Below, in pieces: positions 10,395-40,075 of a stretch of 64,000 nt of DNA. How positions within the stretch are numbered: position 1 is the first letter of the stretch; each line of letters opens with the position of its first letter. Source of the stretch: Thermoplasmatota archaeon (GTDB lineage Archaea > Thermoplasmatota > E2 > JACPAO01 > JAHFTW01). Where the stretch lies: the NCBI GenBank assembly GCA_038046785.1, contig JBBSVM010000001.1, positions 75,665-139,664 on the forward strand, given 5' to 3'. Made by a program: the position numbers and the translations under genes. The notes under the pieces were generated by a model, which was not told the origin of the DNA, did no database searches, and saw nothing but the letters and a program-made list of their open reading frames with translations.

Positions 10395-10434
10395 CCACAG
10401 ATTTCACAGATGCCGTATCTGTGCAATCTGGGGT
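10395..10434. repeat. short copy of the palindromic CAGAT-unit junction repeat (CACAGAT variant)
   Basis: CCACAGATTTCACAGAT-GCCGT-ATCTGTGCAATCTGGGG lies in the 73-nt spacer between convergent stops (10380 and 10454). Confidence 0.8.
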
Positions 10435-10453
10435 TCCGTCGTCACGTTGGCGG

Positions 10454-11239
10454 TCAGATGGAGAAAAGCCGCCCGCCATCGACCGGCATGACGATGCCGC
10501 GCACGAACGACGCGGCAGGACTGCAGAGGAACGCGATGACCGCGCCGAGCTCGGTGGGCGTACCAAGGCGCCCCTCCGGTGTCGCGTCGATCCAGCTCTG
10601 CCGGATGGCTTTGGCGCCCTTGCCGGTGCGCAGGCCCATCTCCGTCTCCAAGTGCCCCAGCCGTTCGGTGTCGACGTAGCCGGGGAGGATGCTGTTGATG
10701 GTGATGCCGGGCGGCAACTCGCGGCTGAGGGTCTTGGCCCAACTCGCCATCGTGGCGCGGATGCTGTTGCTCACGCCGAGGCCGGCAATCGGCTCGCGAA
10801 CGCTGGAAGACAGAACGTTGACGATGCGGCCGTAGCCGGACTCTTTCATGCCGGGCAGCAGAGCCTGGACGAGCAGGTGGCTCGCCAGCAGATGGCGACC
10901 ATAGGGCTTGAGGAAGTCCGCCTCTTTCGCCTCCAGCAACGGCCCCGAGGGCGGCCCTCCGGTGTTGTTGATGAGGATTTGGATGGGGCCTGCCTTTTCC
11001 AGGTGCGCCTTCACTTGGCGCTCCAGGCCGGCGCGGTCGTCGAGGTCGGCCACCAGCATGTGCGTCTCCTGGGCGCCGGCATTCTTCAGGATGGGACGCA
11101 GCGCCGCAAGCTTGTCCGGGCTGCGGGCGAGCAGGGTAATGGTGGCGCCCAAACTGGCCAGTTCCATCGCGGCTGCCTTGCCGATGCCTTGGCTGGCGCC
11201 GCAGACCAGGGCGTGCCGTCCCGTGAGGTCAAGGTCCAC
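10454..11239 (-). CDS. SDR-family oxidoreductase (FabG-like)
   Basis: Carries the TGxxxGIG-type motif VCGASQGIGKA and the NNTG block. Last gene of the kynurenine-type operon. Confidence 0.85.
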   Translation of the reverse strand: MDLDLTGRHALVCGASQGIGKAAAMELASLGATITLLARSPDKLAALRPILKNAGAQETHMLVADLDDRAGLERQVKAHLEKAGPIQILINNTGGPPSGPLLEAKEADFLKPYGRHLLASHLLVQALLPGMKESGYGRIVNVLSSSVREPIAGLGVSNSIRATMASWAKTLSRELPPGITINSILPGYVDTERLGHLETEMGLRTGKGAKAIRQSWIDATPEGRLGTPTELGAVIAFLCSPAASFVRGIVMPVDGGRLFSI

Positions 11240-11269
11240 GCCGTGGCGACCGATGAGGGCGCTTTGATG

Positions 11270-11983
11270 CTACCGCTGATGTTCCCGGAGGACGGCGCGC
11301 ACCGGGCTCGCGTCGGCGTCCTCAAGCCGCAACGGCAAGGCGACGAGTTCGTAGTGGCCCGGCTTGACATGCGAAAGGACAAGCCCCTCCAGGTTCATCA
11401 TGCCGTGCCGGAAGAGCGCACGATGGGCAGGGAGCCCTTTGGAGTCGAACAGATCGGTGCTTGGCGTGTCGAAGCCGACGAGCACGACGCCGCGCTTGCC
11501 CAGGGCGTCGATGAGATCGGGCTCGGGCGCGGCGAAGTCGGAGTTCCAGTTCTCGGGGTCGGGGAAGGTCCCGGTCTTGAACAGGATGCGCGGCGCCGTC
11601 GGCTCCTGCACGAGGTCAACGAGGCCGAACCGTGTGCCGCGCTTGGCACGAACCTCGACCACTTGGCAGGGGCCGACGTAGGCGTCGAGCGGGAGGTCGC
11701 TGATGGCGCGCCCCTCATGGTGATAGTGCTGCGGGGCGTCGGTGTGGGCCCCGACATGGTAAGACGAATGGAAGTCGCCGAGGTCGATGCCGCCGCCTTC
11801 TGCCAAGCGTGCCGTCTTGCGCGCCGTGAAGGGAACGTCGCCGGGCCAGTTTGCGATGCGCGGGGAGACAAGCGGGCTGATGTCGAGGACGCGCGAAGCC
11901 TGCGAACTTGCTGCGGCGGAACCGGACGCGTCGGCCACCTGGTCGGCCAAGGTCTTGGCGTCGCGCCACGCTCCGGCCTTCAT
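11270..11983 (-). CDS. kynB: kynurenine formamidase / cyclase-family arylformamidase
   Basis: Cyclase-family metal motif HVGAHTDAPQH. The start overlaps the upstream stop (ATGA at 11980-11983). Confidence 0.75.
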   Translation of the reverse strand: MKAGAWRDAKTLADQVADASGSAAASSQASRVLDISPLVSPRIANWPGDVPFTARKTARLAEGGGIDLGDFHSSYHVGAHTDAPQHYHHEGRAISDLPLDAYVGPCQVVEVRAKRGTRFGLVDLVQEPTAPRILFKTGTFPDPENWNSDFAAPEPDLIDALGKRGVVLVGFDTPSTDLFDSKGLPAHRALFRHGMMNLEGLVLSHVKPGHYELVALPLRLEDADASPVRAVLREHQR

Positions 11984-13506
11984 CGGTTCTGTCCAATGTG
12001 CGCCACGACCTTGAACTCGACGGCAATCGGCGTCGGCAGCGCCTCGACCTGGACCGTCGTCCGCGTTGCTTGGATTTTGCCGAACGCCTTAGCGTACTCT
12101 TCGTTGAACGCCTTGAAATCGCGCTTCATGTCGGTGAGGAAGACCTGGACATCGAAGACGTCGGCAAGCGTCGCGCCCGATTCTTTGAGGACCGCCTCGA
12201 CGTTGGCGACGACCTGCCGCGTCTGCGCGACGATGTCGTACGCGAGCGGTTTGCCGGCGGCGTCGCGCGTCGGGCCGCCGGGGATGGCATCCGTACCGGG
12301 TGTGCGAGGTCCGATGCCGGCAAGGAAGAGCAGGTCGCCGACGCGGCGGGCGTGCGCGTAGGCGCCAACCGGCTTGGGCGCTGACTTTGCGTGGACGATG
12401 GCCTTGCTCGCCGGAGGAGTCGCCGAACTGGGCGCACCAGGATATCCTGCGCCACTGTCCTCATCCGCAGAGGAATGCGCGCCGCTCCAACGCTCGGTCT
12501 CGTCCGAGGTCTCGAACGCATTTGCCCCTCCGAGGACGTTGCGGTCGCCGTGGTGCTCGTCGGGGTCCGCCTCGTCGTACTCCTTGTCGGCCGCTGCTTT
12601 GCCGGTTGGAACCAGTTCGACGATGGCGGCGCCGGTACCGTAGATGGCCTCGTAGGCGTGCACGGTGCCGGCGAAATTGTTTGACTGGCCGGAAACGGCG
12701 GCGAGCCACCAGACCGCCTTCATCTTGGAGTCGCCGTTGGCCTGGCTGGCAAACTCGCGGGCGAGTTGGCTGGCATCCTCCAAACGGCCGCGGGAGAGGA
12801 ACTCGAGGTACTTGCGGTTCCACTCGTCGTCCTTGCGGCTGTGGATTTTGTCCTCCTTGAACGGAACGACGCCGCTGAAGAGCCGGTTGGAGAGCGCGGT
12901 GACGGCGACGGCGACGACGCGCAGACCGCGCTCGGCGATGGCTTCGCGCGCCGCCTTGCCAAGCACGATGGTCTCGGCGCGGTCGGCGTACATGTTGCAC
13001 GACACGATGCTGGCGGGAATCTTGTTGTCGGGGTTGAGAAGTTTCAGCGCGACGACGCTGCCGGTGTCCACGGGGAAACCGCGGTAGGAGACGGCGCGCA
13101 TCTCCAGGCCGCGCTTCTGGCCCGCCGCGACGTAGGCTTCGCCGAACGGCTTGTCCACGCGCAGCTTGTAAGGGATGACGCCGAGCTCGTGCCACTCCTC
13201 GTCCACGTGCGTCCACGCCGGTGCAGGGTCGGTCTGCACCTGGTGGCCGATGACGCTGGGCCAACGCGTCGAATAGAGAATGAGCAGGTCCGGCTTGAGT
13301 TCCTGGATGCGCTTTCGGACCTTCCCATAGGCGTCGCGGATGCGACGGTAGCCCGGGTTCGCGTCGGGCACCAGGAGCGGGTGCGGCAGGTGCGGGACAA
13401 TGAATGAGGCGACGACGCCCGACTGGGCCGCAGATTTCGCAGATTGCGCAGAGCTCCGACGGTTCTGCGAGGTCTGCGGAATCTGCGGTTTGGTCCGGCG
13501 CGTCAT
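11980..13506 (-). CDS. fusion of a LigB-type extradiol dioxygenase subunit (AmnA-like) and a RidA/YjgF deaminase domain, with a repeat-encoded N-terminal extension
   Basis: The N-terminal half resembles class III extradiol dioxygenase subunits (IVPHLPHPLL...). An acidic linker (DKEYDEADPDEHH...SADEDSG) follows. The C-terminal ~130 aa are RidA-like (VGAYAHARRVGDLLFLAGIGP...VEFKVVA). ATG 13506 overlaps the upstream stop (ATGA). Confidence 0.8.
   Translation of the reverse strand: MTRRTKPQIPQTSQNRRSSAQSAKSAAQSGVVASFIVPHLPHPLLVPDANPGYRRIRDAYGKVRKRIQELKPDLLILYSTRWPSVIGHQVQTDPAPAWTHVDEEWHELGVIPYKLRVDKPFGEAYVAAGQKRGLEMRAVSYRGFPVDTGSVVALKLLNPDNKIPASIVSCNMYADRAETIVLGKAAREAIAERGLRVVAVAVTALSNRLFSGVVPFKEDKIHSRKDDEWNRKYLEFLSRGRLEDASQLAREFASQANGDSKMKAVWWLAAVSGQSNNFAGTVHAYEAIYGTGAAIVELVPTGKAAADKEYDEADPDEHHGDRNVLGGANAFETSDETERWSGAHSSADEDSGAGYPGAPSSATPPASKAIVHAKSAPKPVGAYAHARRVGDLLFLAGIGPRTPGTDAIPGGPTRDAAGKPLAYDIVAQTRQVVANVEAVLKESGATLADVFDVQVFLTDMKRDFKAFNEEYAKAFGKIQATRTTVQVEALPTPIAVEFKVVAHIGQNR
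13427..13490. repeat. palindromic CGCAGAT-unit junction repeat, read in frame
   Basis: CCGCAGATTTCGCAGATTGCGCAGA-GCTCCGACGGT-TCTGCGAGGTCTGCGGAATCTGCGG lies within codons ~6-27 of the CDS ending at 13506. Confidence 0.85.
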
Positions 13507-14519
13507 GTCATCAACCTCGGCGTGACCTGGCGCGTCTTGGGATTGGGGTCCCACTCCAGCACGGCGTTGCCAGTGCCGATGACGGTGCCGTAGCCGTGGA
13601 GCTCTGCGGGATACGAAGGAAAGTCGAGCGCCGCGAGAAGCCACGACAAGCAGCCGGCGTCCGCTTCCGACGTCGCCTGGTCGATGAGGTCAGGCAGTTC
13701 GTCGAAGAGCTGCTTCCCTTTGCCGTCGCGGGCGAGGCCGATGGCGTGCATGTCCCACAAGTGCTGCCCGTGGTGGTAGATGTGCTCGTGGCTCATGTCC
13801 TCGGGCACCTTCGGCTCGCGGGTGAAGTGGCGGTGGCTGATGCTGTTGCTGGCGAGCAGCAAGGCGCGCTTGCCGGAAGCTTCGATGGCCTCCCGCGTCG
13901 CCTGGCCGAGGGCACGCATCTGCTCTTGGCCGACCTCGTTCGAGTAGTCGTTGTAGACGCGGCAGGAACTGATTCCGACGATGGGTTTGTCCCACTTCGG
14001 GTTCACGAGGTGGCACGCGGCGATGGTACCGTAGTCGATGCGGTACTCGGGGTTACGCATCATCTTCATCGTGAGCCCCTTCTTGGCGCCGCGGGCCGCG
14101 ATGTCCTCGGCCAACTCCACATCGACGTCGAAGTCGAAGTTGTAGCGGAACAGGTTGGGGAAGATGGGGTCCACGCTGAGCGATTTGAAGTGCGGAACGC
14201 CAAGAATGTGGTGGCCGACCCGGGTGCGCCAGTGCGGCGAGTGCACCAAAATGACATCGTAGTCGCGGGTGGCGCGGGCGAGACTGTGTCGGAGACGCTC
14301 GTAGCCCCAACGGATTGTCTCCCAGCCACCTTCACTGCGCGCCTCGTTCTGTTTCGGATTGTCGGCGTAGACGAGATGCGGCGGGTGCGGCGTGAGACAG
14401 CCGGCGACAATGGAGCCGCCTCCGGCCCGAACCGCAGATGACGCAGAGCGCGCAGACCGAACGTTCTTCTGCGCAATCTGCGCGATCTGCGGTTTGGTCG
14501 GGCGCTGTTTGCTGGCCAT
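13503..14519 (-). CDS. LigB-family extradiol ring-cleavage dioxygenase, catalytic (AmnB-like) subunit, with a repeat-encoded N-terminal extension
   Basis: Class III dioxygenase blocks are present (TPHPPHLVY, VLVHSPHW, SNSISHRH). There is no ATG/GTG/TTG between the repeat and the conserved domain. ATG 14519 lies 1 nt from the upstream stop. Confidence 0.85.
   Translation of the reverse strand: MASKQRPTKPQIAQIAQKNVRSARSASSAVRAGGGSIVAGCLTPHPPHLVYADNPKQNEARSEGGWETIRWGYERLRHSLARATRDYDVILVHSPHWRTRVGHHILGVPHFKSLSVDPIFPNLFRYNFDFDVDVELAEDIAARGAKKGLTMKMMRNPEYRIDYGTIAACHLVNPKWDKPIVGISSCRVYNDYSNEVGQEQMRALGQATREAIEASGKRALLLASNSISHRHFTREPKVPEDMSHEHIYHHGQHLWDMHAIGLARDGKGKQLFDELPDLIDQATSEADAGCLSWLLAALDFPSYPAELHGYGTVIGTGNAVLEWDPNPKTRQVTPRLMT
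14431..14493. repeat. palindromic CGCAGAT-unit junction repeat, read in frame
   Basis: CCGCAGATGACGCAGAGCGCGCAGA-CCGAACGTTCT-TCTGCGCAATCTGCGCGATCTGCGG. Confidence 0.85.
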
Positions 14520-14520
14520 C

Positions 14521-16065
14521 TCAGGTCTCCTTCATCGTGATGTTCTTCGCCTCGGAATAGAAATCGACCGACCACTCGCCGCCTTCGCGGCCGACGCCGG
14601 ACTCTTTGGAGCCGCCAAATGCGGTGGCAAGGTCGCGCACAAGCCAGCAGTTCACCCAGACCATGCCGGTCTCCAGTCGCTCCGCAACGCGGCGCGCTTT
14701 CGTCGCGTCTTTCGTCCAGACGGTGGCCGTCAGGCCATAGCGGACGCCGTTCGCCAACGCAATGGCTTCGGCTTCATCCCTGAAGGACTGCACGGTGACG
14801 ACGGGTCCAAAAATCTCCTCTTGGATGAGCCGACTCTCCTGCACGACGCCGGTGACGAGGGCGGGGGTCAGGAACGCGCCGTCGGCAAGCTCGCCTGCGA
14901 TGGTCGGCCGGTCGCCGCCGCAGAAAACCTTGGCCTCTTTGCGCGCCAAGTCAAGGTAGCCTTCGACCTTGGTGCGATGCGCAAGCGAGTTGAGGGGACC
15001 GATGTCGGTCGCCTCGTCGCGCGGGTCGCCCACCTTGAGCGCTTTCACCGCTGCCTCCAGCTTTGACAAGAATTTGGCCAACAAGCTCTGCTCGACGAGG
15101 ACGCGGCTCGTGCAGAGGCAAACCTGGCCGCCGTTCGTGAAACCGCCGCGAACCACGCCTGCGACCGCAGCATCGAGGTCACAGTCCGCGAAAACAACCG
15201 CAGGATTCTTGCCGCCGAGCTCCAGGCTGAGTTTCTTGGGCGGGCCAGAGGCGGCGGCCTGCGCAACTTTGGCGCCTGTGGCTGTGCCACCGGTGAAACT
15301 CACGGCACGGACGTCCGGGTTCCGGATGAGCGGGTCGCCCGCCTCGGGACCGAGCCCCTGCACGACGTTGTAAAGTCCGTCGGGGAGGCCCGCCTCGGCA
15401 AGCAGGTCGGCAAGAGCGTCGGCGGTGCGCGGCGTCAACTCGCTCGGCTTCGCGACGACCGCATTGCCGAGACCGAGCGCGGGGGCGACCTTCCAGGTCA
15501 GCAAGTAGAGTGGGAGGTTCCAGGGCGTGACGAGGCCGACGACGCCGACCGGAGTGCGCGATGTGGAGTGGACCCAGCCGTCGCTGTGGAACTCCGGCTC
15601 TGTGCGCTGCTCGAGGAAGTCGGCGTAGAAGCGGAAGTTGCGCGCGGCCCGTGGGATGTCGAGCGTGCGGGCGAGTCGAATGGGTTTGCCCGTGTCTTCC
15701 GACTCCATGCGCGCGAGCCGGTCAAGGTCGCGCTCGATGAGTTCTGCGGTGCGGCGCAGGATGCGGCAACGCTCGGCAAGTTCGAGGCTTGCCCACGAGG
15801 GCTGCGCCTTCGTCGCGGCGACCACCGCGGCATCGACGTCCTCGGCGTTGCCGCGCGGGACCTTGCACAGCACGACGTTGCGCGCCGGGTCCACGTTGTC
15901 GAGGTAGGCACCGGATGCGGGCGCCATCTTGCGGCCGCCAATGCGCTGCGACAGGCGCGGAACCGATTCGGCTTGAACATCGCGCTTGGCGTGGCCGTAG
16001 GCGCGGGCAAGGTCGCGTTGCGCCACTTCACGGTCGCGCTGGAGCCAGCCGAATCCTTCGCTCAC
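14521..16065 (-). CDS. NAD(P)-dependent aldehyde dehydrogenase (2-aminomuconate/2-hydroxymuconate semialdehyde dehydrogenase-like)
   Basis: ALDH blocks FTGGTATG, LELGGKNP and a catalytic Cys region (GQVCLCTSR). The GTG start overlaps the upstream stop (GTGA at 16062-16065). About 30 aa of extra N-terminus. Confidence 0.85.
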   Translation of the reverse strand: MSEGFGWLQRDREVAQRDLARAYGHAKRDVQAESVPRLSQRIGGRKMAPASGAYLDNVDPARNVVLCKVPRGNAEDVDAAVVAATKAQPSWASLELAERCRILRRTAELIERDLDRLARMESEDTGKPIRLARTLDIPRAARNFRFYADFLEQRTEPEFHSDGWVHSTSRTPVGVVGLVTPWNLPLYLLTWKVAPALGLGNAVVAKPSELTPRTADALADLLAEAGLPDGLYNVVQGLGPEAGDPLIRNPDVRAVSFTGGTATGAKVAQAAASGPPKKLSLELGGKNPAVVFADCDLDAAVAGVVRGGFTNGGQVCLCTSRVLVEQSLLAKFLSKLEAAVKALKVGDPRDEATDIGPLNSLAHRTKVEGYLDLARKEAKVFCGGDRPTIAGELADGAFLTPALVTGVVQESRLIQEEIFGPVVTVQSFRDEAEAIALANGVRYGLTATVWTKDATKARRVAERLETGMVWVNCWLVRDLATAFGGSKESGVGREGGEWSVDFYSEAKNITMKET

Positions 16066-17294
16066 GGCTCATGCCCCCGCATCAACGGCTGGCTGCCGAT
16101 GTAGTCGTCGTTGTCGTAGGTCCAGTGGTCGGTGTCAGGGTCCCACTCGTCCCATGTCGCAATCGAGCCGAGCGCCTTCAGGAACTTCGGCGGGACGACG
16201 CCCGGAACAATGAACGCCTTCTGCCGGTGCAGCGGGTAGGGGTTGCGCAGCGTGAAGCCGAGGACGCCGAGAATGGCACGCGCGACATACCAGGTCGCCC
16301 TCGGGTTCCAGCCATGCGCGATCTTGACGACGACGCCGAGGCCGTCGGGGTAGTCGGGATGCTCGATGGCGAGGCCGAGCAGGCCGTCGGCGCCTTCCTT
16401 GGCGATGACTTTGCCGCCGCACGATTTCAGGATGGTCGTGTCGAGCCGGTTGAAGCCGCCCACAAGGTCCGGGTTGCGCACCATCGCCTCCCATACCCAG
16501 TCCTTCTTGCGCGTCTTGGCGAGGTGGGCGTAGAGGATGGCGAGCTCGTTGACCGTGTTGCTGAGCGTTGGCAGGCCGCAGCCGTCGCGCGCCGTGCGGG
16601 CGGGGGTCCACTTCGGGCCGAGGATATCGGCGACGACCTTCGTGTAGGCCTGGAACCAGGGGTGCTGCGGCAGCAGGTAGCCGATGCGCGGCCAGCCTTT
16701 CGCCTTGCAGCCGGCAAGGATGGCGGCGTGCTCACCTGAGCAGGTGTGGTACCAGCGGCGCGGACGGCGCACGCTGCGGCCAAACGGGACGAGCGGCAGA
16801 TCGAGCGGCGCCTGCATGAGGCCCCACTCCGTCTCATGGAGAAGGCTCTGCGCGGCTGCGACGTGCTCGGTGTCGCCGTTGTGTGAGGCGAGCGCGATGG
16901 CTTTCTGCTCCCACGATGACGTTGCCAGCTCTTTTGCGAACACTTTCATCGCGAGCGGCTTCATCATGCTGCGGCCGTAGCAGAGAACGTTGCCGCCGAA
17001 CGAGTGAATGAGTTTGCCACCGTGCGCCCACGCGACGGCGCCGTGAATGGTCGTCTCCGAAATGCCGAGGCGACGGTAGTCCACGAGTGGCTCCCACTCG
17101 ACGTCGCGGCCCGTGGGGATTCCTTTCTCGCGTGTGCCAAGAGGGCCCTCTGGGTAGAGCTCGGAGCCGGGGCCCTGAATGCGGTCGCCTTGGCCGTCAC
17201 TGCGAGCGCCCGTTTTGGTCGCAGATTTCACAGATTTGCGCAGAACGCGTTTCTGTGGCTTCTGCGCAATCTGCGACTTCGTCCGGCGCGTCAC
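16062..17294 (-). CDS. asparaginase-II (PF06089-like) family protein with a repeat-encoded N-terminal extension
   Basis: The family core contains the RDGCGLP block. Track ORF 16062..18071 was trimmed to GTG 17294, which overlaps the LLM gene stop (GTGA). About 55 aa precede the conserved domain. Confidence 0.7.
   Translation of the reverse strand: MTRRTKSQIAQKPQKRVLRKSVKSATKTGARSDGQGDRIQGPGSELYPEGPLGTREKGIPTGRDVEWEPLVDYRRLGISETTIHGAVAWAHGGKLIHSFGGNVLCYGRSMMKPLAMKVFAKELATSSWEQKAIALASHNGDTEHVAAAQSLLHETEWGLMQAPLDLPLVPFGRSVRRPRRWYHTCSGEHAAILAGCKAKGWPRIGYLLPQHPWFQAYTKVVADILGPKWTPARTARDGCGLPTLSNTVNELAILYAHLAKTRKKDWVWEAMVRNPDLVGGFNRLDTTILKSCGGKVIAKEGADGLLGLAIEHPDYPDGLGVVVKIAHGWNPRATWYVARAILGVLGFTLRNPYPLHRQKAFIVPGVVPPKFLKALGSIATWDEWDPDTDHWTYDNDDYIGSQPLMRGHEP
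17217..17277. repeat. palindromic CGCAGAT-unit junction repeat, read in frame
   Basis: TCGCAGATTTCACAGATTTGCGCAGA-ACGCGTT-TCTGTGGCTTCTGCGCAATCTGCGA. Confidence 0.85.
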
Positions 17295-18553
17295 GCGGCG
17301 ACCTCCTTGCGAGCGAGTTTGGGCGTGACTTTCTCCATGAAAGCCGCCATGTTGCGAATGACGCGGTCGGAATCGTGGTTGAAGAAATCGAACCAGAGCA
17401 TGAGACGGTCGTCGGAGTGGTAGCGCGCGGCAAGCTGTTGCGCAACGTCGTCGGCGGTGCCGATGACAGCGTTGTCGGACGCCTCGCCGACTTTCTTCGG
17501 GTCGAGGGTGCCCTCCAGGGCGTTCCAATATGCGGCGAGCGCTGCCTTCGCCTCCGCCTGCGCGGCGGCGCGCCGTTGCTCGGGCGAGAGGACCGGCTCC
17601 TCGTTGAGGAAGACCAGGACGGTGCGCGGCATGTAGCTGCGTTTCCACGGGCCGCCCTCCTTGTGGAACACCTTGCGCATCCGTTCGTGCGTCGCGTCGA
17701 TGACGGTGCCCGGCGTGATGCTCAAATTGGCGACGTGGGCGGGCAGGAACTTGTTGGCGAGTTCGTGCGCCTGAGGATCGTGCGAGCCGACGACGAGCTG
17801 CACCAGTTCGCGGCGCCACGCCTGCGGGATAATTTTGAGGGGGTCGAAATGGAACTGCTTCGGGACGCGGATGCGTTCGTTTTCTCCCCCCGCCATCGAC
17901 GAGAGCCTGCCTTCCGCTTTCGCCGCGTCGCGTGCCTTCAGCCACTCCGGCTCGCTGCGGAAGTCTGCGCGGCCGATGGTGCGTTCCGGGACCTGGCCGC
18001 CAGCCAGCGTCTCTCCCGAGAGCAGCCTGGAGAAAACCTCGCAGGCCTCGAGAAAGACGGTGCCTTTCCACAACCCGAAGGGCAGCGCTTTCTCGAGCGG
18101 AGTGCGCGGCTCGATGCCGTAGGCGCGATTCATGTAATCGAAACGGCCGGCACTGAAGCCGACGTGGATGCGGCGCCGTTCGGCGGGGTCGAGGCCGTGC
18201 AGGGCCGCGAACATCGCGATGCGCTCCGCCGCGGCGACCGGGCCGCCGTTGCAGAGGATGTTCATGACGGCAGAGCCCACCTCGATGCGCTTGGTGCGGC
18301 GGAAGATCGCATGGGCGAACTGCAGCATGTCTGCGTTGAGGCCGACCTCCCCCTGCCAGTGCGGGATGACGGGAAGCCGGTTGCCCTTCTGCACTTCACT
18401 GCTAAGATGGCTTTCCGCGAGCCAGGCGACGCCGAAGCCGAGCCGATCCGCCGCCTCGATTTGCGCCATCGCGTTGGCGAACATCTCGCGCTCCGTCGGC
18501 GTGCGCCCCGCGACGGGGGTCTGGCTGATGGAGAGGAAAAGGTCGAACTCCAC
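17291..18553 (-). CDS. LLM-class (luciferase-like) flavin-dependent oxidoreductase
   Basis: 420 aa. The N-terminus EFDLFLS...AEAADRLGFGVAWLAESH is typical of luciferase-like monooxygenases. GTG start. Confidence 0.7.
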   Translation of the reverse strand: MEFDLFLSISQTPVAGRTPTEREMFANAMAQIEAADRLGFGVAWLAESHLSSEVQKGNRLPVIPHWQGEVGLNADMLQFAHAIFRRTKRIEVGSAVMNILCNGGPVAAAERIAMFAALHGLDPAERRRIHVGFSAGRFDYMNRAYGIEPRTPLEKALPFGLWKGTVFLEACEVFSRLLSGETLAGGQVPERTIGRADFRSEPEWLKARDAAKAEGRLSSMAGGENERIRVPKQFHFDPLKIIPQAWRRELVQLVVGSHDPQAHELANKFLPAHVANLSITPGTVIDATHERMRKVFHKEGGPWKRSYMPRTVLVFLNEEPVLSPEQRRAAAQAEAKAALAAYWNALEGTLDPKKVGEASDNAVIGTADDVAQQLAARYHSDDRLMLWFDFFNHDSDRVIRNMAAFMEKVTPKLARKEVAA

Positions 18554-18596
18554 GTCAAACCGTCCAGGGGTTGGTGCGCTTGAAGCCTGCGGACGG

Positions 18597-19415: not shown

Positions 19416-19501
19416 TGTACAAAACCGCACATCAATCCAGGTTGAACCCGCTCTTGAATCTTGCCGTTTCTCTCATATCCAAGGCGCGCCCATCTCTTGG
19501 T

Positions 19502-23591: not shown

Positions 23592-23663
23592 GCCGACGTA
23601 GCACAGCGGTAGTGCAGCTGTCTTGTAAACAGCAGGTCGTGTGTTCAAATCACACCGTCGGCT
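23592..23663 (+). tRNA. tRNA-Thr (UGU)
   Basis: Hand-folded cloverleaf: acceptor GCCGACG/CGTCGGC, anticodon loop CTTGTAA, T arm GTGTG-TTCAAAT-CACAC. No encoded CCA. Confidence 0.9.
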
Positions 23664-30389: not shown

Positions 30390-30390
30390 G

Positions 30391-30470
30391 TCGCAGATTG
30401 CGCCGATTTCTCAGATTTTTCCTTCGCGCAGAACGGCGAGTCTGCGTCATCTGAGCAATCTGCGCCAAGC
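30391..30470. repeat. palindromic CGCAGAT-unit junction repeat, non-coding copy
   Basis: GTCGCAGATTGCGCCGATTTCTCAGATT...GCGCAGAACGGCGAG-TCTGCGTCATCTGAGCAATCTGCGCC fills the 85-nt spacer between convergent stops (30389 and 30475). Confidence 0.85.
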
Positions 30471-30474
30471 GTCG

Positions 30475-32031
30475 TCAGATGACCGTGCTGTGCCCCTTCT
30501 TCGGCAGCGGGTGGTGCTTGTTCGCCGTCGCGGCAAGGCGCGCAATGAGTTCGCTGCGCAACTGGCTCGGCGGGACGATGTGGTCCACGATGAGGTCGTT
30601 GGCGGTGACATGGATGTCGATGTCGCGCTTGTACTCGGAGCGCTTGGCTGCGATGAACGCTTCCCGCTCTTTTCCGGCGGGGACTTTGGCGATGTGGTTG
30701 GCGTAGACGGCGTTGATGGCCGCCTCCGCACCCATCACGGCAATCTCGGCGCCGGGGAGGGCCAGCGTCGCATCCGGCTCGAAGGCGGGGCCGCACATCG
30801 CGTAGATGCCGGCGCCGTACGCTTTGCGCACGACGACGCAGAACTTGGGAACCGCCGCGGTGCTCGTTGCGTAGATGAATTTCTTGCCGCGTTTGAGGAT
30901 GCCCTGCGCTTCCACTTCGCTGCCGACCATGAAGCCGGGCGTGTCGCAGAGGTAAATGAGCGGGACGTTGAAGGCGTCGCAGGCGGTGATGAACTCGGCC
31001 GCCTTGTCGGCGCTGTGCGGGAAGATGGCGCCCGCCCGCACCGCCGAATTGTTCGCGACGATGCCGACGACGTGGCCGCCGATGCGGGCGAAGCCGGTGC
31101 GCAACTCCTCTGCGTGACTCGCCTTGATTTCGAACCAGGAATCGCCGTCGACGAGACGGACAATCAGCTCGCGCATCTCGAACGCCTTGTTGGGGTCCTC
31201 CGGCACGAGGGCGGCGATGCTTGCAGTGGGCGAGGCAGGGTCGCGGCTCTCGAAGCGGGCCGGCCGCTCGTCGCAGTTGTCCGGCAGGTAGCTCATCAGT
31301 TTCCACGCGGCGAGAGCTGCCTCTTGCTCGGTCTCCACGACGACATGGCACTGGCCTGACTGCTCCATGTGGAAGTCGGCGCCGCCGAGCTCCTGCATGC
31401 CAATTTTTTCGCCGGTCACCATCTCGACCATGCGCGGGCTTGCGATGCAGAGCGCGCTCATGCCGCGCACCATGATCATGAAGTCGCAGAAGATGGGCGT
31501 GTAGGCGGCACCCGCGACGCAGGGACCGTACAGGACCGCCACCTGGGGGATTTTCCCCGAAAGCAGGCTGTGGTTGTAGAAGTATTTCCCGATGCCGCGG
31601 ATGTTGGCGAAGAAGCCCGCCTGGTCGGTGATGCGAGCACCGGAGGAGTCAATGAGGTAGAGCACCGGCTTCTGCGAGCGCAGCGCGCGGTCCTGGACGC
31701 GGATGAACTTCTCGACGCCGCGCTCCGCCATGCTGCCGGCCTTCACCGTGTAGTCGTTGGCGATGACGTAGAGGGTGCGCTCGCCCATCCTGGCAGCGCC
31801 GGTCACCATGCCGTCGGCGGCAAGCCCCTCCTCGGCACGCAGGTTGTTGGCGAAGAGGCCATCCTCGAACGCAAGCCCGTCGGGGAAGAAGAGGTTCAAG
31901 CGGTCGCGCACGAACAGCTTGCCCTCCTCGGCCAGCTTGTCGTGGTACTTTGCGGGGCCGCCTTTCTTGAGGCGCTCGATGTCGGCCTGGATGGATGCCT
32001 CGCGGTCCGTCGTCTTCCCGCTCACGGCCAT
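30475..32031 (-). CDS. acyl-CoA carboxylase carboxyltransferase (beta) subunit
   Basis: PccB/12S-type sequence (VIANDYTVKAGSM, DSSGARI, CDTPGFMVG). Track ORF trimmed to ATG 32031. Confidence 0.9.
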   Translation of the reverse strand: MAVSGKTTDREASIQADIERLKKGGPAKYHDKLAEEGKLFVRDRLNLFFPDGLAFEDGLFANNLRAEEGLAADGMVTGAARMGERTLYVIANDYTVKAGSMAERGVEKFIRVQDRALRSQKPVLYLIDSSGARITDQAGFFANIRGIGKYFYNHSLLSGKIPQVAVLYGPCVAGAAYTPIFCDFMIMVRGMSALCIASPRMVEMVTGEKIGMQELGGADFHMEQSGQCHVVVETEQEAALAAWKLMSYLPDNCDERPARFESRDPASPTASIAALVPEDPNKAFEMRELIVRLVDGDSWFEIKASHAEELRTGFARIGGHVVGIVANNSAVRAGAIFPHSADKAAEFITACDAFNVPLIYLCDTPGFMVGSEVEAQGILKRGKKFIYATSTAAVPKFCVVVRKAYGAGIYAMCGPAFEPDATLALPGAEIAVMGAEAAINAVYANHIAKVPAGKEREAFIAAKRSEYKRDIDIHVTANDLIVDHIVPPSQLRSELIARLAATANKHHPLPKKGHSTVI

Positions 32032-32050
32032 CGCACCGCCCTGAGGTTCT

Positions 32051-32488
32051 TCAAGGCGCTGGACCCAATTCGAGGACCACTTGGCTTGTTTCCAGAGTAG
32101 CGCCGGGCATGAGATGGATGGCCGTGACGGTGCCAGCCGCAGGGGCTCGCACCTCATTCTGCATCTTCATCGCCTCCAGCACGAACAGAACATCGCCGCG
32201 CTCGACGCGTTGACCGAGGGTGACGCGCAGGGATTCGAGCTTGCCTGTCATGGGTGGCTTGACCCGCACAGGTCCCGACGAGGCGGCGCCACCTTCTCCC
32301 GCCAGCAGGTCGAGCTCCAGGATGGTGTAGGTCACCTCGCGGTCGGCGATGCGGGCGCGACCGGGGGCGAGAAGCGCAACGTCATGGCGGGCGAGCGGGA
32401 ACGATTCGCCATCCACGGTAACGGTGCGCCCCTTGTGATCCACCACCACTTCGTACGACAGCCCATCCACGACGATGGTCGCCTTCAT
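32051..32488 (-). CDS. biotin carboxyl carrier protein
   Basis: Biotinyl-lysine motif EAMKMQNE. ATG 32488 overlaps the accC stop (ATGA). Confidence 0.85.
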   Translation of the reverse strand: MKATIVVDGLSYEVVVDHKGRTVTVDGESFPLARHDVALLAPGRARIADREVTYTILELDLLAGEGGAASSGPVRVKPPMTGKLESLRVTLGQRVERGDVLFVLEAMKMQNEVRAPAAGTVTAIHLMPGATLETSQVVLELGPAP

Positions 32489-34066: not shown

Positions 34067-34103
34067 ACACAGATTTCACAGATGCCTCTGTGAGCCGCTC
34101 TGG
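34067..34103. repeat. short/decayed copy of the CAGAT-unit repeat
   Basis: ACACAGATTTCACAGATGCC-TCTGTGAGCCGCTCTGG. The left arm is nearly identical to the copy at 10395. Confidence 0.65.
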
Positions 34104-34142
34104 CTGGAATTCGTTCGTGGGTATTCGCTTCCCGCCAAAATG

Positions 34143-34259
34143 TCACAGATTGCGGCTCGGCCAAACTCCAGTCTCATCTGCGCAATTTTGGCGCAACCTC
34201 CGCTTGTCCTTTGAATGAGATTCCCTAACGTTGCGCGAACGAATCTGCGGAATCTGTGG
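34143..34259. repeat. cluster of CAGAT/ATCTG units (one or two decayed repeat copies)
   Basis: Units TCACAGATTGCGG, CATCTGCGCAATTTTGGCGCAA and GAATCTGCGGAATCTGTGG lie in the lon/accC spacer. Confidence 0.6.
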
Positions 34260-34278: not shown

Positions 34279-36312
34279 CTACGTCCGGGCGTGGACTTTG
34301 CGGTGCAGCGCGTTCTGGACCTGCACCTTACGCTTGGCGGCGCCGGGGGCAAGGGCGTGGTCGAGCACCTCGGCGAGGTCTTCGGCGAGGAGGATCTCGA
34401 TGCGGCTGCGGTAGGAGTGCTCCAAGAGGATGTCGTCCTTGTTGCTGTGCGGTACGACGGCGCGCCGGTAGCCGAGGTCGGCGGCGCCCTCCACCATCTG
34501 TGTGATGCCTTCCACGGCGCGCAGACGGCCGGTGACGGCGAGGCTGCCGAGGATGACGGTGTCCTGGCGCACCGGGAGATCCTCGAGGGCGCTGATGCAG
34601 GCGACCGCCGAGGCGGCGCTCAAGGCCTGAACGTCGGCGCCCGCCTGCTGAAGCAGCGACTGGACATGCAAGTCGATGCCTGCCATGTCCGAGCCGCGCA
34701 ATCGTTTGACGACGGCGCCCACAGTGTCTGCGACGGTGGCGTCTCGTTCCAGGCCTCCGCCGAAGAAGAGAGTGCCTTTCTGGCGGTCGCTGCTGATGGT
34801 GGCGTCGGCTTCGACGGGGACGACGATGCCGGCCGGCTCGCCGGTTTCGCCGGTTCCCATGAAGGCGCAACCGATGGCAGTTCCAACCTTCTCGCCGCCC
34901 ACCGTGAGCGCCTCTTTGGCGGTCGCGACCTCGATGCCGCGGCGCGTGACTTGGTATTCCAGGCTCTGGCTCATGCGCTTGGCACCCAGGACATGGTCCA
35001 CGGTGACGCTGGTCGCATTCTCGTCGCGCGCAATATCGCCAGCGGTGCGCACCAGGCCGCCCAGTTCGCGCAGTCGGAGCGTGAGTTTGCCTGTGTGGCC
35101 GCTGCGGCGCTGCGCTTCGCGAATGACCTCGGCGACGGCGCCGCCATCAAAGTGCGGGATGCGACCGTCGCGGCGCACTTCCTGGGCGACGAAGCGAACC
35201 AGTTTGCGACGGTTGGCGTCGGTGTCCTCCATGACCGCGCGCACGTACACTTCGTAGCCGTAGCCGCGAATGCGGCTGCGCAGCGCAGGGTGAAGGCCCT
35301 GGAAGCGCGAGTCGGTCGGATTGAGAACATCCATGTTGCCCGCGGCGACCAGGATGAAATCGCACGGGATGGGCTCAGTCTTGGCTTGCGCTCCCGAGGA
35401 TTTCTCGGACTGACCGGTGATGCTGTACTTGCGGTCCTGCATCGCGGTGAGGAGTGCCTGCTGCGAGTCGAGGCGCAGGACGTTGATCTCGTCGATGAAC
35501 AGGAGTCCTTTGTTGGCGCGGTGGATGGCGCCCGGCTCGACGCGCAGGTGGGTCGGCGTCTCAAGACCGCCCGACTGGAACGGGTCGTGTCGAACGTCGC
35601 CAAGCAGCGCGCCGGCGTGGGCTCCGGTGCCATCGACATAGGGGGCGGGGGAGACGCCAGCTGGCCGTTCGATGATGAGATTGGGCACCAGCTTTCCCGG
35701 CTTGGCGCCGAACTGGCGCGCCACGAAGAGGAAGAACAGCGTCACCAAGATGCAGAGCACCAACGTGGTGATGCCGCCGGTCCCGCCGATGGAGTAGAGC
35801 GCGTAGAATCCCGCCGAAAGAATGGCGAGAGCCAGCAGAACCTCGATGCCGGTGAAGAGCCGGGTGAGCCGCTTGGCGCGCTGCTGCGCGTGGAGGGAGA
35901 GCGAGCGCCCTTCGCCCGCAGGCAGGGTGCGGACGTGCGGGACGTTCTGGTCCTTGACGTTGGGCAGGATAATGACATCGTCGAGAGGCGTGGCGGGGAG
36001 AATCTGCGCCATCGCCTTGGCAATCATCGACTTTCCGGTGCCGGGGTCGCCCAGCAGGAGTAGGTGGCGGCGCTGGCGGGCCGCCTTCTTGGCGACCTCG
36101 ACCGCCTCCTCTTGGCCGATGACTTCGTCGATGAGCAGCTCGGGCAGCGGCAAATCCGCGGTGCTGGCCAGCCCTTCGGCCTCAATCCAGGCGTGCGGGT
36201 CGCTGAGCTTGAGACCGTGGCCGTTGCTTGCAGGCTCCTTGGCTTTGCCCTTCGTCGACACTTTCGCCTTGGCGGGCGTTGCGGACACCTTGAACAGTTT
36301 GCGTGACATCAC
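34279..36312 (-). CDS. lonB: archaeal membrane-bound Lon protease (LonB)
   Basis: Walker A GDPGTGKS. Two TM helices are inserted in the AAA+ module. C-terminal Ser-Lys protease domain. Confidence 0.9.
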   Translation of the reverse strand: MMSRKLFKVSATPAKAKVSTKGKAKEPASNGHGLKLSDPHAWIEAEGLASTADLPLPELLIDEVIGQEEAVEVAKKAARQRRHLLLLGDPGTGKSMIAKAMAQILPATPLDDVIILPNVKDQNVPHVRTLPAGEGRSLSLHAQQRAKRLTRLFTGIEVLLALAILSAGFYALYSIGGTGGITTLVLCILVTLFFLFVARQFGAKPGKLVPNLIIERPAGVSPAPYVDGTGAHAGALLGDVRHDPFQSGGLETPTHLRVEPGAIHRANKGLLFIDEINVLRLDSQQALLTAMQDRKYSITGQSEKSSGAQAKTEPIPCDFILVAAGNMDVLNPTDSRFQGLHPALRSRIRGYGYEVYVRAVMEDTDANRRKLVRFVAQEVRRDGRIPHFDGGAVAEVIREAQRRSGHTGKLTLRLRELGGLVRTAGDIARDENATSVTVDHVLGAKRMSQSLEYQVTRRGIEVATAKEALTVGGEKVGTAIGCAFMGTGETGEPAGIVVPVEADATISSDRQKGTLFFGGGLERDATVADTVGAVVKRLRGSDMAGIDLHVQSLLQQAGADVQALSAASAVACISALEDLPVRQDTVILGSLAVTGRLRAVEGITQMVEGAADLGYRRAVVPHSNKDDILLEHSYRSRIEILLAEDLAEVLDHALAPGAAKRKVQVQNALHRKVHART

Positions 36313-38426: not shown

Positions 38427-38518
38427 TGCGCGACCACGACCGCGGCGCGGGATAAGCGTTGCCTTCCCCTGACAGAACGGTGACGTCGGTTTGTGAAACC
38501 GTTTCGCTTCGCCACGCG

Positions 38519-39985
38519 CTACTTGTTCAAGGCGTGAATCGCTTTTCCGTGCAGCGCTTCGGCGGCTTCCATGAGGCCCTCGCTGAGCGTCGGGTGGGGG
38601 TGGACGGTGAGCGACAGATCCTCCACGGTGGCGCCCATCTCGAGGGCGAGCGCCGCCTCTGCGATGAGGTCGGAAGCTCCGGGGCCGAGAATGTGCACAC
38701 CGAGCAGGCGGTCGCTCTTCTTGTCACCGATGACCTTGTAGAAGCCGTCCGTCTCCGAGGCGGCCATCGCGCGGCCGAGGGCGGCGACGTTGAAGGTGCC
38801 AACCTTGACGTCGTGGCCCGCCGCCTTCGCCTGCGCTTCCGTCATCCCAGCGGTGGCAATTTCGGGGTCGGTGAAGATGACGCCCGGGATGGTGGCGAAA
38901 TCGGCCGCTGCGCCGGACTTCTTGCCCGCAAGTGTCGCAGCGATGACTTCAGCAGCGACGACGCCTTCCTTGCTCGCTTTGTGCGCAAGCATCGGACCGT
39001 GCGTGATGTCCCCGATGGCGAAGACCGTGGCGACGTTGCTGCGTTTTTGCAGGTCCGTCACCACGAAGCCGCGCTCGTCGAGCTTGACGCCCGCCTTCTC
39101 CAGGCCAAGCCCCTTCGTGTTGGGGCGACGGCCGACGGAGACGAGGACGACGTCGGCGTCGATGGTCTGCTCGGAGCCCTTGACCTCGAAGGTGACTTTG
39201 ACGCCGGAGCCGGAGACCTTGGCCTCCTTGGCGCGAGCGCCGAGGTGAAGGTCCCATTTGCGGCGCTTGAGGATGCGTTCCAGCCCTTTTGCGATCTCGG
39301 CGTCCACGCCGGGGACGAGCTGGTCCATCATCTCGACGACGGTGACCTTGCTGCCCAGGTTGGCGTAGGCGCAGCCGAGTTCGAGGCCGATGACGCCGCC
39401 GCCGATGACGACCAGGTGCTTCGGCACTTCCTGCAGTTCGAGGGCGCCGGTGCTGCTGACGATGCGCTTCTCGTCGAACTTGAAGCCCGGAATCTCGATG
39501 GTGCTCGAGCCTGTGGCGAGGATGACGTTCTTCGCCTGGAGGGTGCGCTTGGCGAGCCCAGCGACGTCGATGACGCCGGCGCCAGCGAGTGTGGCGCGGC
39601 CGTTCACAACCTCGACCTTGTTCGCCTTCAGAAGCCCGGCGACGCCGCCCGTGAGCTTGTCCACGATGCCTTGCTTCCATTTCACGAGCTTCGGCATCTC
39701 GATGATGGGATCGGCGAAGGTCAATCCCTTCTCGGCGCCGTGGATGGCGTGCTTGTAGTCCTTCGCGGCCGAGATGACAGCCTTGGACGGAATGCAACCG
39801 ACGTTGAGGCAGACGCCGCCGAGCTTGCCCTCCTCGATGACCACGGTCTTGAGCCCAAGCTGGCCGGCGCGGATGGCCGCGACGTAGCCGCCGGGACCGG
39901 CGCCGATGATGGCGACGTCGTACATGGATGGGCTGGACGCGCCGGATTTGCCGGATTGCGCACTCTGCGGCGGCATCTGCTCCAT
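38519..39985 (-). CDS. lpdA: dihydrolipoyl dehydrogenase (E3)
   Basis: YDVAIIGAGPGGY FAD motif and redox-active GGVCLNVGCIPSK. The start is ambiguous (ATG 39985, GTG 39994, or ATG 39925 directly before YDV). Confidence 0.9.
   Translation of the reverse strand: MEQMPPQSAQSGKSGASSPSMYDVAIIGAGPGGYVAAIRAGQLGLKTVVIEEGKLGGVCLNVGCIPSKAVISAAKDYKHAIHGAEKGLTFADPIIEMPKLVKWKQGIVDKLTGGVAGLLKANKVEVVNGRATLAGAGVIDVAGLAKRTLQAKNVILATGSSTIEIPGFKFDEKRIVSSTGALELQEVPKHLVVIGGGVIGLELGCAYANLGSKVTVVEMMDQLVPGVDAEIAKGLERILKRRKWDLHLGARAKEAKVSGSGVKVTFEVKGSEQTIDADVVLVSVGRRPNTKGLGLEKAGVKLDERGFVVTDLQKRSNVATVFAIGDITHGPMLAHKASKEGVVAAEVIAATLAGKKSGAAADFATIPGVIFTDPEIATAGMTEAQAKAAGHDVKVGTFNVAALGRAMAASETDGFYKVIGDKKSDRLLGVHILGPGASDLIAEAALALEMGATVEDLSLTVHPHPTLSEGLMEAAEALHGKAIHALNK
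39941..39982. repeat. decayed in-frame copy of the junction repeat inside the E3 N-terminal extension
   Basis: Plus strand GCCGGATTTGCCGGATTGCGCAC-TCTGCGGCGGCATCTGC encodes PPQSAQSGKSGASS on the minus strand, comparable to SSAQSAKSAAQSG in the CDS ending at 13506. Confidence 0.55.
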
Positions 39986-40013
39986 GACGCCCACGACTAC
40001 GCCTCCCCGACGA

Positions 40014-40075
40014 GTCGCAGATTACTCAGATTGCGCAGAACGGAGGTAATCTGAGAAATCTGCGCAATCTGCGAC
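40014..40075. repeat. palindromic CGCAGAT-unit junction repeat at the E2/E3 junction
   Basis: GTCGCAGATTACTCAGATTGCGCAGA-ACGGAGGT-AATCTGAGAAATCTGCGCAATCTGCGAC. It lies inside a 29-codon ORF (40086..39997) that starts immediately after the E2 stop. Confidence 0.85.

Follow-up and report, generated by a model that had tools for sequence, protein, structure and literature searches.

What kind of element is a short palindromic repeat that lies at gene junctions, and also within coding sequence, in an archaeal chromosome? The question is raised by a 64-kb stretch of DNA (the window: contig JBBSVM010000001.1, positions 75,665–139,664) that is core chromosome of a Thermoplasmatota-like archaeon and in which an initial annotation had described a dispersed family of inverted CGCAGAT-type units. 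The answer that we favour, with a probability of roughly 0.55, is that the repeat is an apparently uncatalogued, non-autonomous selfish palindromic element resembling repetitive extragenic palindromes (REPs), MITEs (miniature transposable elements that bear inverted repeats) and Rickettsia palindromic elements (RPEs), the palindrome of which would be kept by copying at the level of DNA. The element as we define it would comprise 60–95 bp, with two to four tandem 9-nt modules in each arm, inverted around a variable loop, and each copy is predicted to be able to form a 25–35 bp hairpin or cruciform. Copying and spread we infer from insertion polymorphism, from ends shared by copies at unrelated sites, from occurrence across domains and on plasmids and viral contigs, and from a base composition independent of that of the host.

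The window (GC 64–69%) was searched with the two-unit pattern CRCAGATNNNNCAGA, with shuffled sequence (100 shuffles) as the background. There were 15 matches against 0.08 expected and no shuffle held as many; all 15 fall within the loci named in the initial annotation, and CGCAGAT-type units are indeed present where it had placed them. The heptamer CGCAGAT is present 26 times, where shuffles give 12.2 ± 3.5. A detector that takes no account of the unit (arms no shorter than 20 nt, 15 or more Watson–Crick pairs, a loop of 3–50 nt and 9-nt periodicity in the arms) returned exactly five loci in 64 kb, at 13425, 14432, 17216, 30388 and 40013 (shuffles 0–1); the same scan of the window gave no such palindromes at periods 7, 8 and 10, one match at period 11 and three at period 12. 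Window copies have arms of 20–37 nt with 76–94% complementarity, and terminal inverted repeats are present. They are listed below with the minimum free energy of folding (MFE, kcal/mol), its z-score against shuffles, and the score from a covariance model (CM).

10388–10441: intact copy, two units per arm, CACAGAT type; MFE −29.4, z −5.35, CM 41.2 bits, E 6e-9.
13412–13504: intact copy, three units per arm, outer arms GCCSGAC...GTCGGGC; MFE −50.6, z −5.9 (sense strand), CM 69.7 bits.
14420–14504: intact copy in the AmnB-like gene (− strand); MFE −54, z −7.1, CM 69.2 bits.
17204–17292: intact copy in the N-terminus of the asparaginase-II-like gene (− strand); MFE −41.3, z −5.2, CM 52.6 bits.
30384–30474: intact copy, three to four units, the left arm with one extra unit; MFE −37.2, z −3.6, CM 49.6 bits.
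34067–34103: decayed copy, right arm eroded; z −1.3, CM E 3.3.
34131–34195: marginal copy, one unit per arm, outer arms CGCCAAAAT/ATTTTGGCG; z −2.06, 7 of 200 shuffles as good, CM E 0.035.
34225–34259: half element, two reverse-arm units only; z −0.6, missed by the CM.
39941–39982: remnant, arms no longer complementary; z −0.24, missed by the CM.
40004–40086: intact copy in the E2/E3 spacer; MFE −41.3, z −6.6, CM 63.1 bits.

The initial annotation had counted nine copies and had expected their arms to fold as hairpins. Six copies (at 10.4, 13.4, 14.4, 17.2, 30.4 and 40.0 kb) are intact and fold strongly, with MFE values of −29 to −54 kcal/mol, z-scores of −3.6 to −7.1, none of 200 dinucleotide shuffles folding equally well and CM scores of 41–70 bits, but the rest amount to one marginal copy (34131–34195) and decayed pieces, and for the pieces at 34067, 34225 and 39941 the z-scores are −1.3 to −0.2. 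The left arm of the 34067–34103 copy, CACAGATTTCACAGATGCC, is identical over 20 bases to that of the copy at 10395, and in the 39941–39982 remnant GCCGGATT units stand opposite TCTGCG/ATCTGC. Two further, very decayed copies are possible, one inside the lonB ORF at 34585–34663 (CM E = 0.024, with an CGCTGATG...CAGCG signature) and one in the AmnA/RidA linker at 12430–12480, where TCTGCGGAT and GCGCAGGAT stand at the place at which relatives hold an intact element.

The window encodes archaeal LonB, SRP54, a glycine-cleavage system, a 2-oxoacid dehydrogenase operon, acyl-CoA carboxylase subunits and a tryptophan/2-aminophenol catabolic operon (10454–19430, − strand) with the gene order TDO, luciferase-like, asparaginase-II-like (AspII), aldehyde dehydrogenase, AmnB-like, AmnA-like/RidA, cyclase and SDR; the closest homologues of its genes are in Thermoplasmatota metagenome-assembled genomes (MAGs) and soil metagenomes. 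As the initial annotation had stated, two copies fill spacers between convergent stop codons: 10388–10441 in the spacer 10381–10453, between a Rieske-like gene (10054–10380, +) and the SDR gene (10454–11239, −), and 30384–30474 in the spacer 30390–30474, between an HMGL-like gene (29121–30389, +) and a carboxyltransferase gene (30475–32157, −). The 40004–40086 copy fills the E2/E3 junction from the E2 stop (TAA, 40087–40089) to the E3 start (GTG, 39994), and the marginal 34131–34195 copy sits, together with the other degenerate pieces at 34 kb, in the 261-nt spacer from the LonB stop to the biotin-carboxylase start. Four copies had been placed within the first ~35 codons of enzymes, and they do lie there. 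Three are in − strand genes of the catabolic operon: 13412–13504 within codons 2–31 of the AmnA-like/RidA fusion gene (11980–13506), 14420–14504 within codons ~6–33 of the AmnB-like gene (a 2-aminophenol 1,6-dioxygenase beta homologue, 13503–14519), and 17204–17292 in the AspII-like gene (16062–17294), the GTG start of which overlaps the TGA of the upstream luciferase-like gene. These three starts have a GGAG-type, Shine–Dalgarno-like motif 6–8 nt upstream and overlap or abut the upstream stop (GTGA, TGAGATG, ATGA), the AspII-like start reading AAGGAGGT and then GTGA and the AmnA-like/RidA start combining an ATGA overlap with a GAGG motif. The fourth, the 39941–39982 remnant, lies between the GGAGG-supported E3 GTG at 39994 and the canonical Met of E3 (39935) and is probably translated, as VGVMEQMPPQSAQSGKSGASSPS; the E3 Pfam domain begins at residue 25. 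All these positions hold, but the strict rule of placement at junctions that had been drawn from them is better read as survivorship than as targeting, because overlapping genes (ATGA, GTGA) leave no non-coding DNA within the operon.

At the orthologous junctions of relatives, the comparison to which the initial annotation had pointed, both empty and filled sites were found. Three relatives (L119, L159 and L160) hold the same operon without the element. Their AmnB is 304–307 aa long and starts M(S)KG(R/S)IVAGC, against 338 aa in the window; AmnA/RidA is 457–518 aa long in the empty relatives, 508 in the window and 533–559 in other filled relatives, and AspII has 354 aa in L160, shorter than in the window, and 411 aa in L119, which is the window length. 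In the filled relatives (L121, L122, L139, L140 and L124) elements stand at the same junctions, with an extra element where a linker joins the two domains of the AmnA/RidA ORF. The window AmnB reads MASK/QRPTKPQIAQ...SAVRAGG/GSIVAGC where the basal N-terminus of relatives is MSKG(S/R)IVAGC, and its AmnA reads MT/RRTKPQIPQ...SAAQSG/VVASFIVPH where the empty orthologous sites read MT/VHNPVASFILPH and VPVVAGYVIPP; the coding copies in the window are therefore insertions 2–4 codons after the start, and in-gene copies as a whole stand either there or in the domain linker. A metagenome scan for more orthologues gave 16 loci, two of them close relatives, and the more distant, bacterial-like orthologous operons have no element.

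At filled sites the architecture is kept and the unit differs (CGCAGA/TCTGCG in the window, CGCCGA/TCGGCG in L122, CGCGGA/TCCGCG in L139 and CACGGA/TCCGTG in L140 and L124, with CACCGAT, CGCTGAT and CCGGGAAA at other sites), all the units and both arms of a copy changing together. The encoded peptides are unrelated among orthologues (PQIAQIAQK, PPMTPMAPK, TRKTRKARN and PRSPRNARK), and it is the palindrome that is kept. There are also sites at which the palindrome has decayed and the extension is retained (P0001/L141 and P0007–P0009), and in L121 only a short outer palindrome is present at the place of the full element in relatives. In a quick neighbour-joining tree of the AmnB core, made without support values, long extensions fall in two clades with basal-start lineages between them, which implies that the extension was gained twice or more at one and the same codon, or else was lost precisely. 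No consistent target-site duplication was seen across the empty and filled sites compared; AAG stands on either side in L121, the window copy at 17217 has GTGAC at both of its edges, and the flanking sequences have diverged.

A single reading frame is used in both arms (xCG-CNG-ATx and TCT-GCG-xxx) by every one of the 17 in-ORF copies, which occupy four distinct sites, and this frame gives a peptide rich in P, Q, I, A, S and K; the frames that would give Cys-rich or Arg/Leu-rich peptides are used by none of the 17. The predicted element-encoded peptides joined to AmnB or AmnA include TKPQIAQIAQK and SAQSAKSAAQSG. Copies at different archaeal sites share their outer arms (GCCSGAC-CAAA-CC, read as TKPQ), which speaks for their being copies of one another and not local inventions. 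Three other accounts of the extensions were rejected. Mis-called start codons are contradicted by the lack of any alternative start between element and Pfam domain, by the Shine–Dalgarno-like motifs and ATGA/GTGA overlaps, and by empty orthologues, which show the element splitting the original N-terminus; upstream migration of the start after an intergenic insertion is ruled out by the basal MSK/GSIVAGC pattern; and a twin-arginine signal (MTRRTK...) is contradicted by the lack of a hydrophobic segment after it and by a peptide that is not conserved. Intergenic copies within operons are also spanned by open frames. A 29-codon mini-ORF (40086–39997, − strand) covers the E2/E3 copy, its ATG directly after the E2 TAA and its stop 2 nt before the E3 GTG (TAAATG ... 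TAG-2nt-GTG), and in L121 a 38-codon ORF (8211–8327) lies between the AmnA/RidA and cyclase genes, with a TGATG overlap at its start and a GTGA overlap at its end. Such mini-ORFs may keep ribosomes moving through the hairpin, but the bridging is only suggestive, since open frames of this kind are not improbable by chance at 66% GC.

Covariation was computed on an alignment of 24 archaeal sequences, which are related and in some cases orthologous. In it 83% of cells are paired; double-sided changes number 80 against 39.5 ± 4.8 in shuffles (0 of 500 reaching 80), and the covariation score is 0.277 against at most 0.078 with partners slid. One column pair shows A-U, C-G, G-C and U-A, and one-sided G·U intermediates are nearly absent. 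As the sequences are related the shuffle control is generous, and more weight falls on the slid control and on the spectrum of pairs. Folding is as stable on the sense strand as on the antisense strand (n = 53, p = 0.13), and selection on a sense-strand RNA, looked for as G·U asymmetry, was rejected for want of a significant effect in these 53 copies. The concerted changes of the arms suggest that the palindrome is maintained as DNA, a reading supported by the lack of wobble intermediates, the equal folding of the two strands and the decay in some lineages; an RNA stem under stepwise selection fits these observations less well.

The family reaches far beyond the window. A scan with a pattern requiring two units in each arm, taking one genome per species, matched at least 118 loci, which belong to at least 13 bacterial phyla and to Thermoplasmatota, so that further copies, of which the initial annotation had advised a search, exist across domains. 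Carriers are found in Thermodesulfobacteriota, Verrucomicrobiota, NC10, Bacteroidota, Chloroflexota, Planctomycetota, Nitrospirota, Acidobacteriota, Gemmatimonadota, several Pseudomonadota, Desantisbacteria, Lentisphaerota and Thermoplasmatota, in 16 viral contigs, and in two plasmids, of cultured Haliscomenobacter hydrossis and Gemmatirosa kalamazoonensis, where the RefSeq records leave them unannotated; E. coli genomes and cultured phages gave no match. In bacteria the canonical form reads (A/G/T)TC-(CGCAGATTA)2-4, followed by 10–40 nt of loop and (TAATCTGCG)2-4-GA(T/C), and the module consensus is C-R-C-N-G-A-T-T-W, of which CGCAGAT is one variant only; the C.C.GAT core at 9-bp spacing is invariant across phyla. 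A covariance model built from 24 archaeal copies only gives bacterial copies up to 72.5 bits, equal to its training set, and recovers copies that the pattern missed. Element GC is 0.30–0.55 while host GC is 0.28–0.70. Similarity between loci extends over only ~100–400 nt, and no unit arrays were found flanking a transposase-sized ORF, and the idea that the hairpin belongs to a larger autonomous element was rejected on these grounds. When neighbouring ORFs were clustered all against all, there was no shared gene family (the largest cluster, among the matches listed, held 11 of 118 loci) and no linked transposase or toxin–antitoxin system at the at least 118 loci, and the 64-kb window encodes no transposase, integrase, RAYT-like or other mobile-element gene. 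One canonical copy lies on a contig labelled as a Citrobacter freundii MAG; none of 5,426 complete E. coli genomes is similar to this contig, which is probably mis-binned.

Several loci show the copies in company. On one 14.2-kb IMG/VR contig (L157) the unit-agnostic detector finds six copies of CGCGGATT/CGCAGATT type and the covariance model adds a seventh (3611–3747); they fill nearly every co-directional gene junction, have loops that are all different and AT-rich and, where both flanking ORFs were called, start 7–22 nt after the stop and end 7–35 nt before the next start. Tandem composite arrays, mosaic in the manner of bacterial interspersed mosaic elements (BIMEs), occur at L076 4190–4660 (five 100-nt repeats, each an unrelated GC-rich hairpin plus reverse-arm units only), L025 99–431 (three identical 133-nt repeats) and L080 1990–2165 (three repeats of ~60 nt). 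Palindromes of nonamers with an unrelated unit, (AAATGGACG)x3 / CGTCCAT, stand beside a CGCAGAT-type copy on a viral contig (L145, 4666–4736 and 1205–1298). In the window itself 51104–51176 is an 11-nt-period palindrome of the same design with an unrelated unit (AACAGGAGGGC TCCAGGAGGGC ... GCCTCCTGGTT CCCTCCTGGAC), just upstream of a tRNA-Tyr gene and overlapping an unannotated 118-aa ORF (50827–51183, −). The architecture may be more general than the C-R-C-N-G-A-T-T-W module.

The initial annotation had compared the repeat with REP/BIME and MITE-like elements while being unable to assign it to a described family, and on both counts we agree: it is a dispersed hairpin repeat at gene junctions, and no described family was found for it in Rfam 15, Pfam, NCBIfam or the searchable literature. 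At the gathering threshold none of the 4227 covariance models of Rfam 15 matched the repeats, and in E-value mode only generic long-hairpin (miRNA) models did so, far below threshold. Pfam and NCBIfam have no family for five of the six translated elements, and the sixth gave only a chance-level Pfam match (DUF903, E = 0.076, 13 bits against a cut-off of 27). Seventeen sequence and peptide words of the family retrieved no paper in searchable full text (subscription literature, ISfinder and Dfam lay outside the scope of the search), and a keyword search of the literature returned only general work on REPs, MITEs and RPEs; a prior description under another name is possible.

Among known systems the closest in kind are REPs, BIMEs and REPINs, which are likewise short, dispersed imperfect palindromes, mostly between co-directional or convergent genes just downstream of ORFs, with clusters and mosaic tandem arrays, with two inverted halves giving a long hairpin in REPINs, and with occasional copies in ORFs and at N-termini (PMC3733652, PMC3116915). 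They differ in that a REP is a single 20–40 bp palindrome whereas the arms here are arrays of a 9-nt module, in that REP families are lineage-specific whereas this module is common to at least 13 phyla and to archaea, and in that the loops here are not conserved between copies. REPs bear a conserved GTAG (or CGTC) tetranucleotide at one end (PMC3733652); none was evident at the ends of the copies by eye, no formal test having been run, and CGTC/GACG strings do lie a few bases from the ends of the copies at 10395, 13427, 17217, 30391 and 40014 in a genome of 66% GC. The IS200-like Y1 transposase RAYT (REP-associated tyrosine transposase) is neither encoded in the window nor a recurrent neighbour at the at least 118 loci. 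The element works like REP/REPIN, then, a likeness that falls short of showing membership. MITEs (Correia/NEMIS, Chunjie, Nezha) agree in being 60–150 bp long with terminal inverted repeats and stable stem-loop transcripts, and in inserting between genes, including inside unbroken operons (Chunjie), and as in-frame fusions with host ORFs, as RPEs also do (PMC10969869). Here, however, the interior is unrelated between copies of one genome (the window, L157), the inverted repeats are tandem arrays, the distribution is cross-domain, and neither a parent insertion sequence (IS) nor a consistent target-site duplication was found.

RPEs are palindromic selfish DNA lying in frame in unrelated metabolic genes, where they add tolerated peptide segments, and in this they are similar; their sequence is unrelated, with no NCBIfam or Pfam match in a scan that was not aimed at RPE models, and they are ~150 bp long and lack the nonamer architecture, while the bacterial copies here are mostly intergenic. 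NCBIfam holds RPE models, and to our knowledge RPEs are confined to Rickettsia and relatives. Hairpins made by template switching also have near-perfect stems kept by multi-base, compensatory-looking events (PMC8794818), and the coding palindromes of Nematomorpha mitochondria have both arms of an inverted repeat embedded in coding sequence (PMC6649704), but both are local, lineage-specific events and not a dispersed family with a module shared across domains. Intrinsic terminators and SPRITE-like repeats place a strong stem-loop just after stops, as here, and a T-run follows about a quarter of bacterial copies, but most copies have no U-tract and some lie in ORFs and translationally coupled operons. 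We know of no dependence of archaeal termination on such hairpins.

On the reading that we favour, the element would spread within genomes and horizontally among very distant hosts through an activity supplied in trans, and the copies now seen would be the surviving insertions, those in convergent spacers, in rare intercistronic spacers or in frame in tolerant regions of proteins. Copies in coding sequence would persist as peptide insertions of 25–40 residues, tolerated because the module is three codons long and its GC-rich variant has no stop codon. The palindrome would be kept or renewed at the DNA level, through hairpin-templated strand switching, unit slippage, conversion from other copies or re-insertion, and such renewal would account for the units and arms of a copy changing together; effects on mRNA (3′-end protection, enforced translational coupling) are candidates for a secondary role. 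Several observations weigh on the other side. Neither the 64-kb window nor the neighbours of the at least 118 loci yielded a mobilising enzyme or a parent IS, the sites compared gave no consistent target-site duplication, and the window has no near-identical pair of copies of the sort that marks recent transposition. The six copies of L157 share arms and have unrelated loops, although typical MITEs and REPINs copy as whole units, and the filling of nearly every co-directional junction of this viral or prophage-like contig just after the stop looks regular and not random. Palindromy retained at orthologous junctions across 77–90% AmnB identity, and the fact that operon-internal copies are always spanned by an ORF (as a fusion or a mini-ORF), could each mean selection for a host function. 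Context statistics for bacteria rest on rough gene calls. A bolder version, which we put forward only tentatively, is that the repeat forms a distinct, cross-domain class of element with propagation machinery of its own, or a self-templating 'palindrome drive' acting in replication. It would then home to gene junctions and to its own older copies, renew its arms in concert, and repeatedly supply archaeal and bacterial enzymes with new N-terminal extensions, linkers between domains and coupling mini-ORFs.

The first alternative, which we consider unlikely, is that the host selects an RNA hairpin, an intercistronic or 3′-end stem-loop transcribed within operons that would protect against 3′ exonucleases, set the relative stability of cistrons, attenuate or terminate transcription, or make downstream translation strictly coupled. 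It is consistent with the copies just after stops (six co-directional junctions filled on L157), with the contexts of bacterial loci by rough ORF calls (53 tandem, 18 convergent, 10 divergent and 19 that seem to lie inside ORFs), with a modest excess of downstream T-runs (of 53 copies, 13 have TTTT within 12 nt on the downstream side and 4 on the upstream side), with palindromy kept through compensated changes at orthologous junctions and with the invariable bridging of operon-internal copies by ORFs; for REPs, too, a position mainly downstream of coding regions and a plausible action as RNA are reported (PMC3733652). What speaks against it is that the sense strand has no advantage and no G·U bias, that compensation bypasses wobble intermediates and includes transversion swaps, that the close relatives L119, L159 and L160 run the same operon without copies, that in some lineages the palindrome has decayed, and that loops are unconserved. 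Copies are also found within ORFs, in a linker between domains and between convergent genes, and most are without a U-tract.

Improbable, though it explains the concerted changes and the unrelated loops, is an origin without mobility, in which replication slippage and template switching would make each palindrome locally and the likeness across phyla would reflect a sequence preference of the process. Units and both arms of a copy do change together around unrelated loops, palindromes of unrelated units exist (L145 and 51104–51176), and L121 has its short outer palindrome at a site where relatives hold the full element; template switching is known to create and maintain hairpin stems (PMC8794818) and to perfect quasipalindromes (PMC7202029, PMC8794818). 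The same 9-nt module, however, recurs at unrelated sites in at least 13 phyla, archaeal copies share an outer-arm consensus, element GC is independent of host GC, orthologous sites are cleanly empty or filled, and copies occur on plasmids and viral contigs. Little can be expected, equally, of an array of binding sites on double-stranded DNA, the inverted 9-bp modules serving as iteron-like sites for a nucleoid, partition or regulatory factor. The invariant core with its fixed spacing across phyla, the strand-symmetric architecture free of RNA strand bias and the reverse-arm arrays that lack a partner arm (L076) would suit such a role, but two core positions are free to vary from copy to copy, within a single genome too, the places occupied are 3′ ends, ORFs and the gaps between convergent genes and not promoters, clustering at the at least 118 loci gave no conserved neighbour gene, and a 9-bp period would, by reasoning only, be out of phase with the DNA helix.

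Selection for the encoded peptide, as an N-terminal tag or linker, is very hard to credit: 17 copies do share one frame and give a hydrophilic, low-complexity peptide at N-termini and one domain linker, but between orthologues it is the DNA palindrome and not the peptide that is conserved, relatives lack the peptide, half of the window copies and most bacterial ones are intergenic, and no Pfam or NCBIfam family matches. Scarcely more can be said for integron attC-like recombination sites or cassette-array spacers; several host phyla are integron-rich, and the copies at gene junctions are imperfect palindromes similar in size to attC, some of them ending AAC...GTT, but most end ATC...GAT, GTC...GAC or TCC...GGA, copies occur inside ORFs, the neighbours are a syntenic catabolic operon and housekeeping genes rather than cassettes, and the window has no integrase. 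The likeness of TTATCC(G/A)CA ends to DnaA boxes was set aside as coincidental, on reasoning only, the unit being one base out of register, the copies dispersed and the family present in archaea; archaea lack DnaA.

Other features of the window were noted in passing. It has tRNA-Thr (23592–23663), tRNA-His (25672–25747) and tRNA-Tyr (51322–51396, −) genes and an archaeal RNase P RNA at 50000–50292 (+; RF00373, 117.8 bits, full length), by which the window was recognised as archaeal. A protein with an Mrr-type restriction endonuclease domain (7451–8392, −) is encoded a few kb from the first copy and has no evident link to the repeats. In the ORF for the glycine-cleavage H protein (51526–52302, +) 138 residues precede the domain; the start is probably much further downstream, or else there is an unannotated N-terminal region. 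AmnB of the catabolic operon is ~70% identical to proteins of Planctomycetota, Myxococcota and Krumholzibacteria MAGs, a degree of identity that suggests inter-domain transfer of the tryptophan/2-aminophenol meta-cleavage operon, which looks complete in this archaeon.

Dispersed palindromic repeats, whether selfish or regulatory, are a well known class, and the mechanism given here is one that we infer; what lends this family its interest is the cross-domain reach, the architecture of nonamer arrays, the concerted and compensated turnover at orthologous sites, and the repeated conversion to coding sequence. If confirmed, the family would be among the most widely distributed of small prokaryotic repeats, running from Bacteroides to Nitrospirota to Thermoplasmatota. 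Its translations (such as PQITQITQI, NLRNLRNLR, ICVICG and SADYADFAD) probably seed spurious 'hypothetical proteins', and it would confound covariation screens for RNA structure, as the arms co-vary with no need for a function in RNA. The empty, filled, renewed and decayed sites form a natural series in which to follow the maintenance of a palindrome and the passage of selfish DNA into coding sequence, and the in-gene copies are a natural test case for translational coupling that tolerates a stem of −40 to −54 kcal/mol right behind the start codon. The cultured carriers Haliscomenobacter hydrossis and Gemmatirosa kalamazoonensis make these questions directly tractable.

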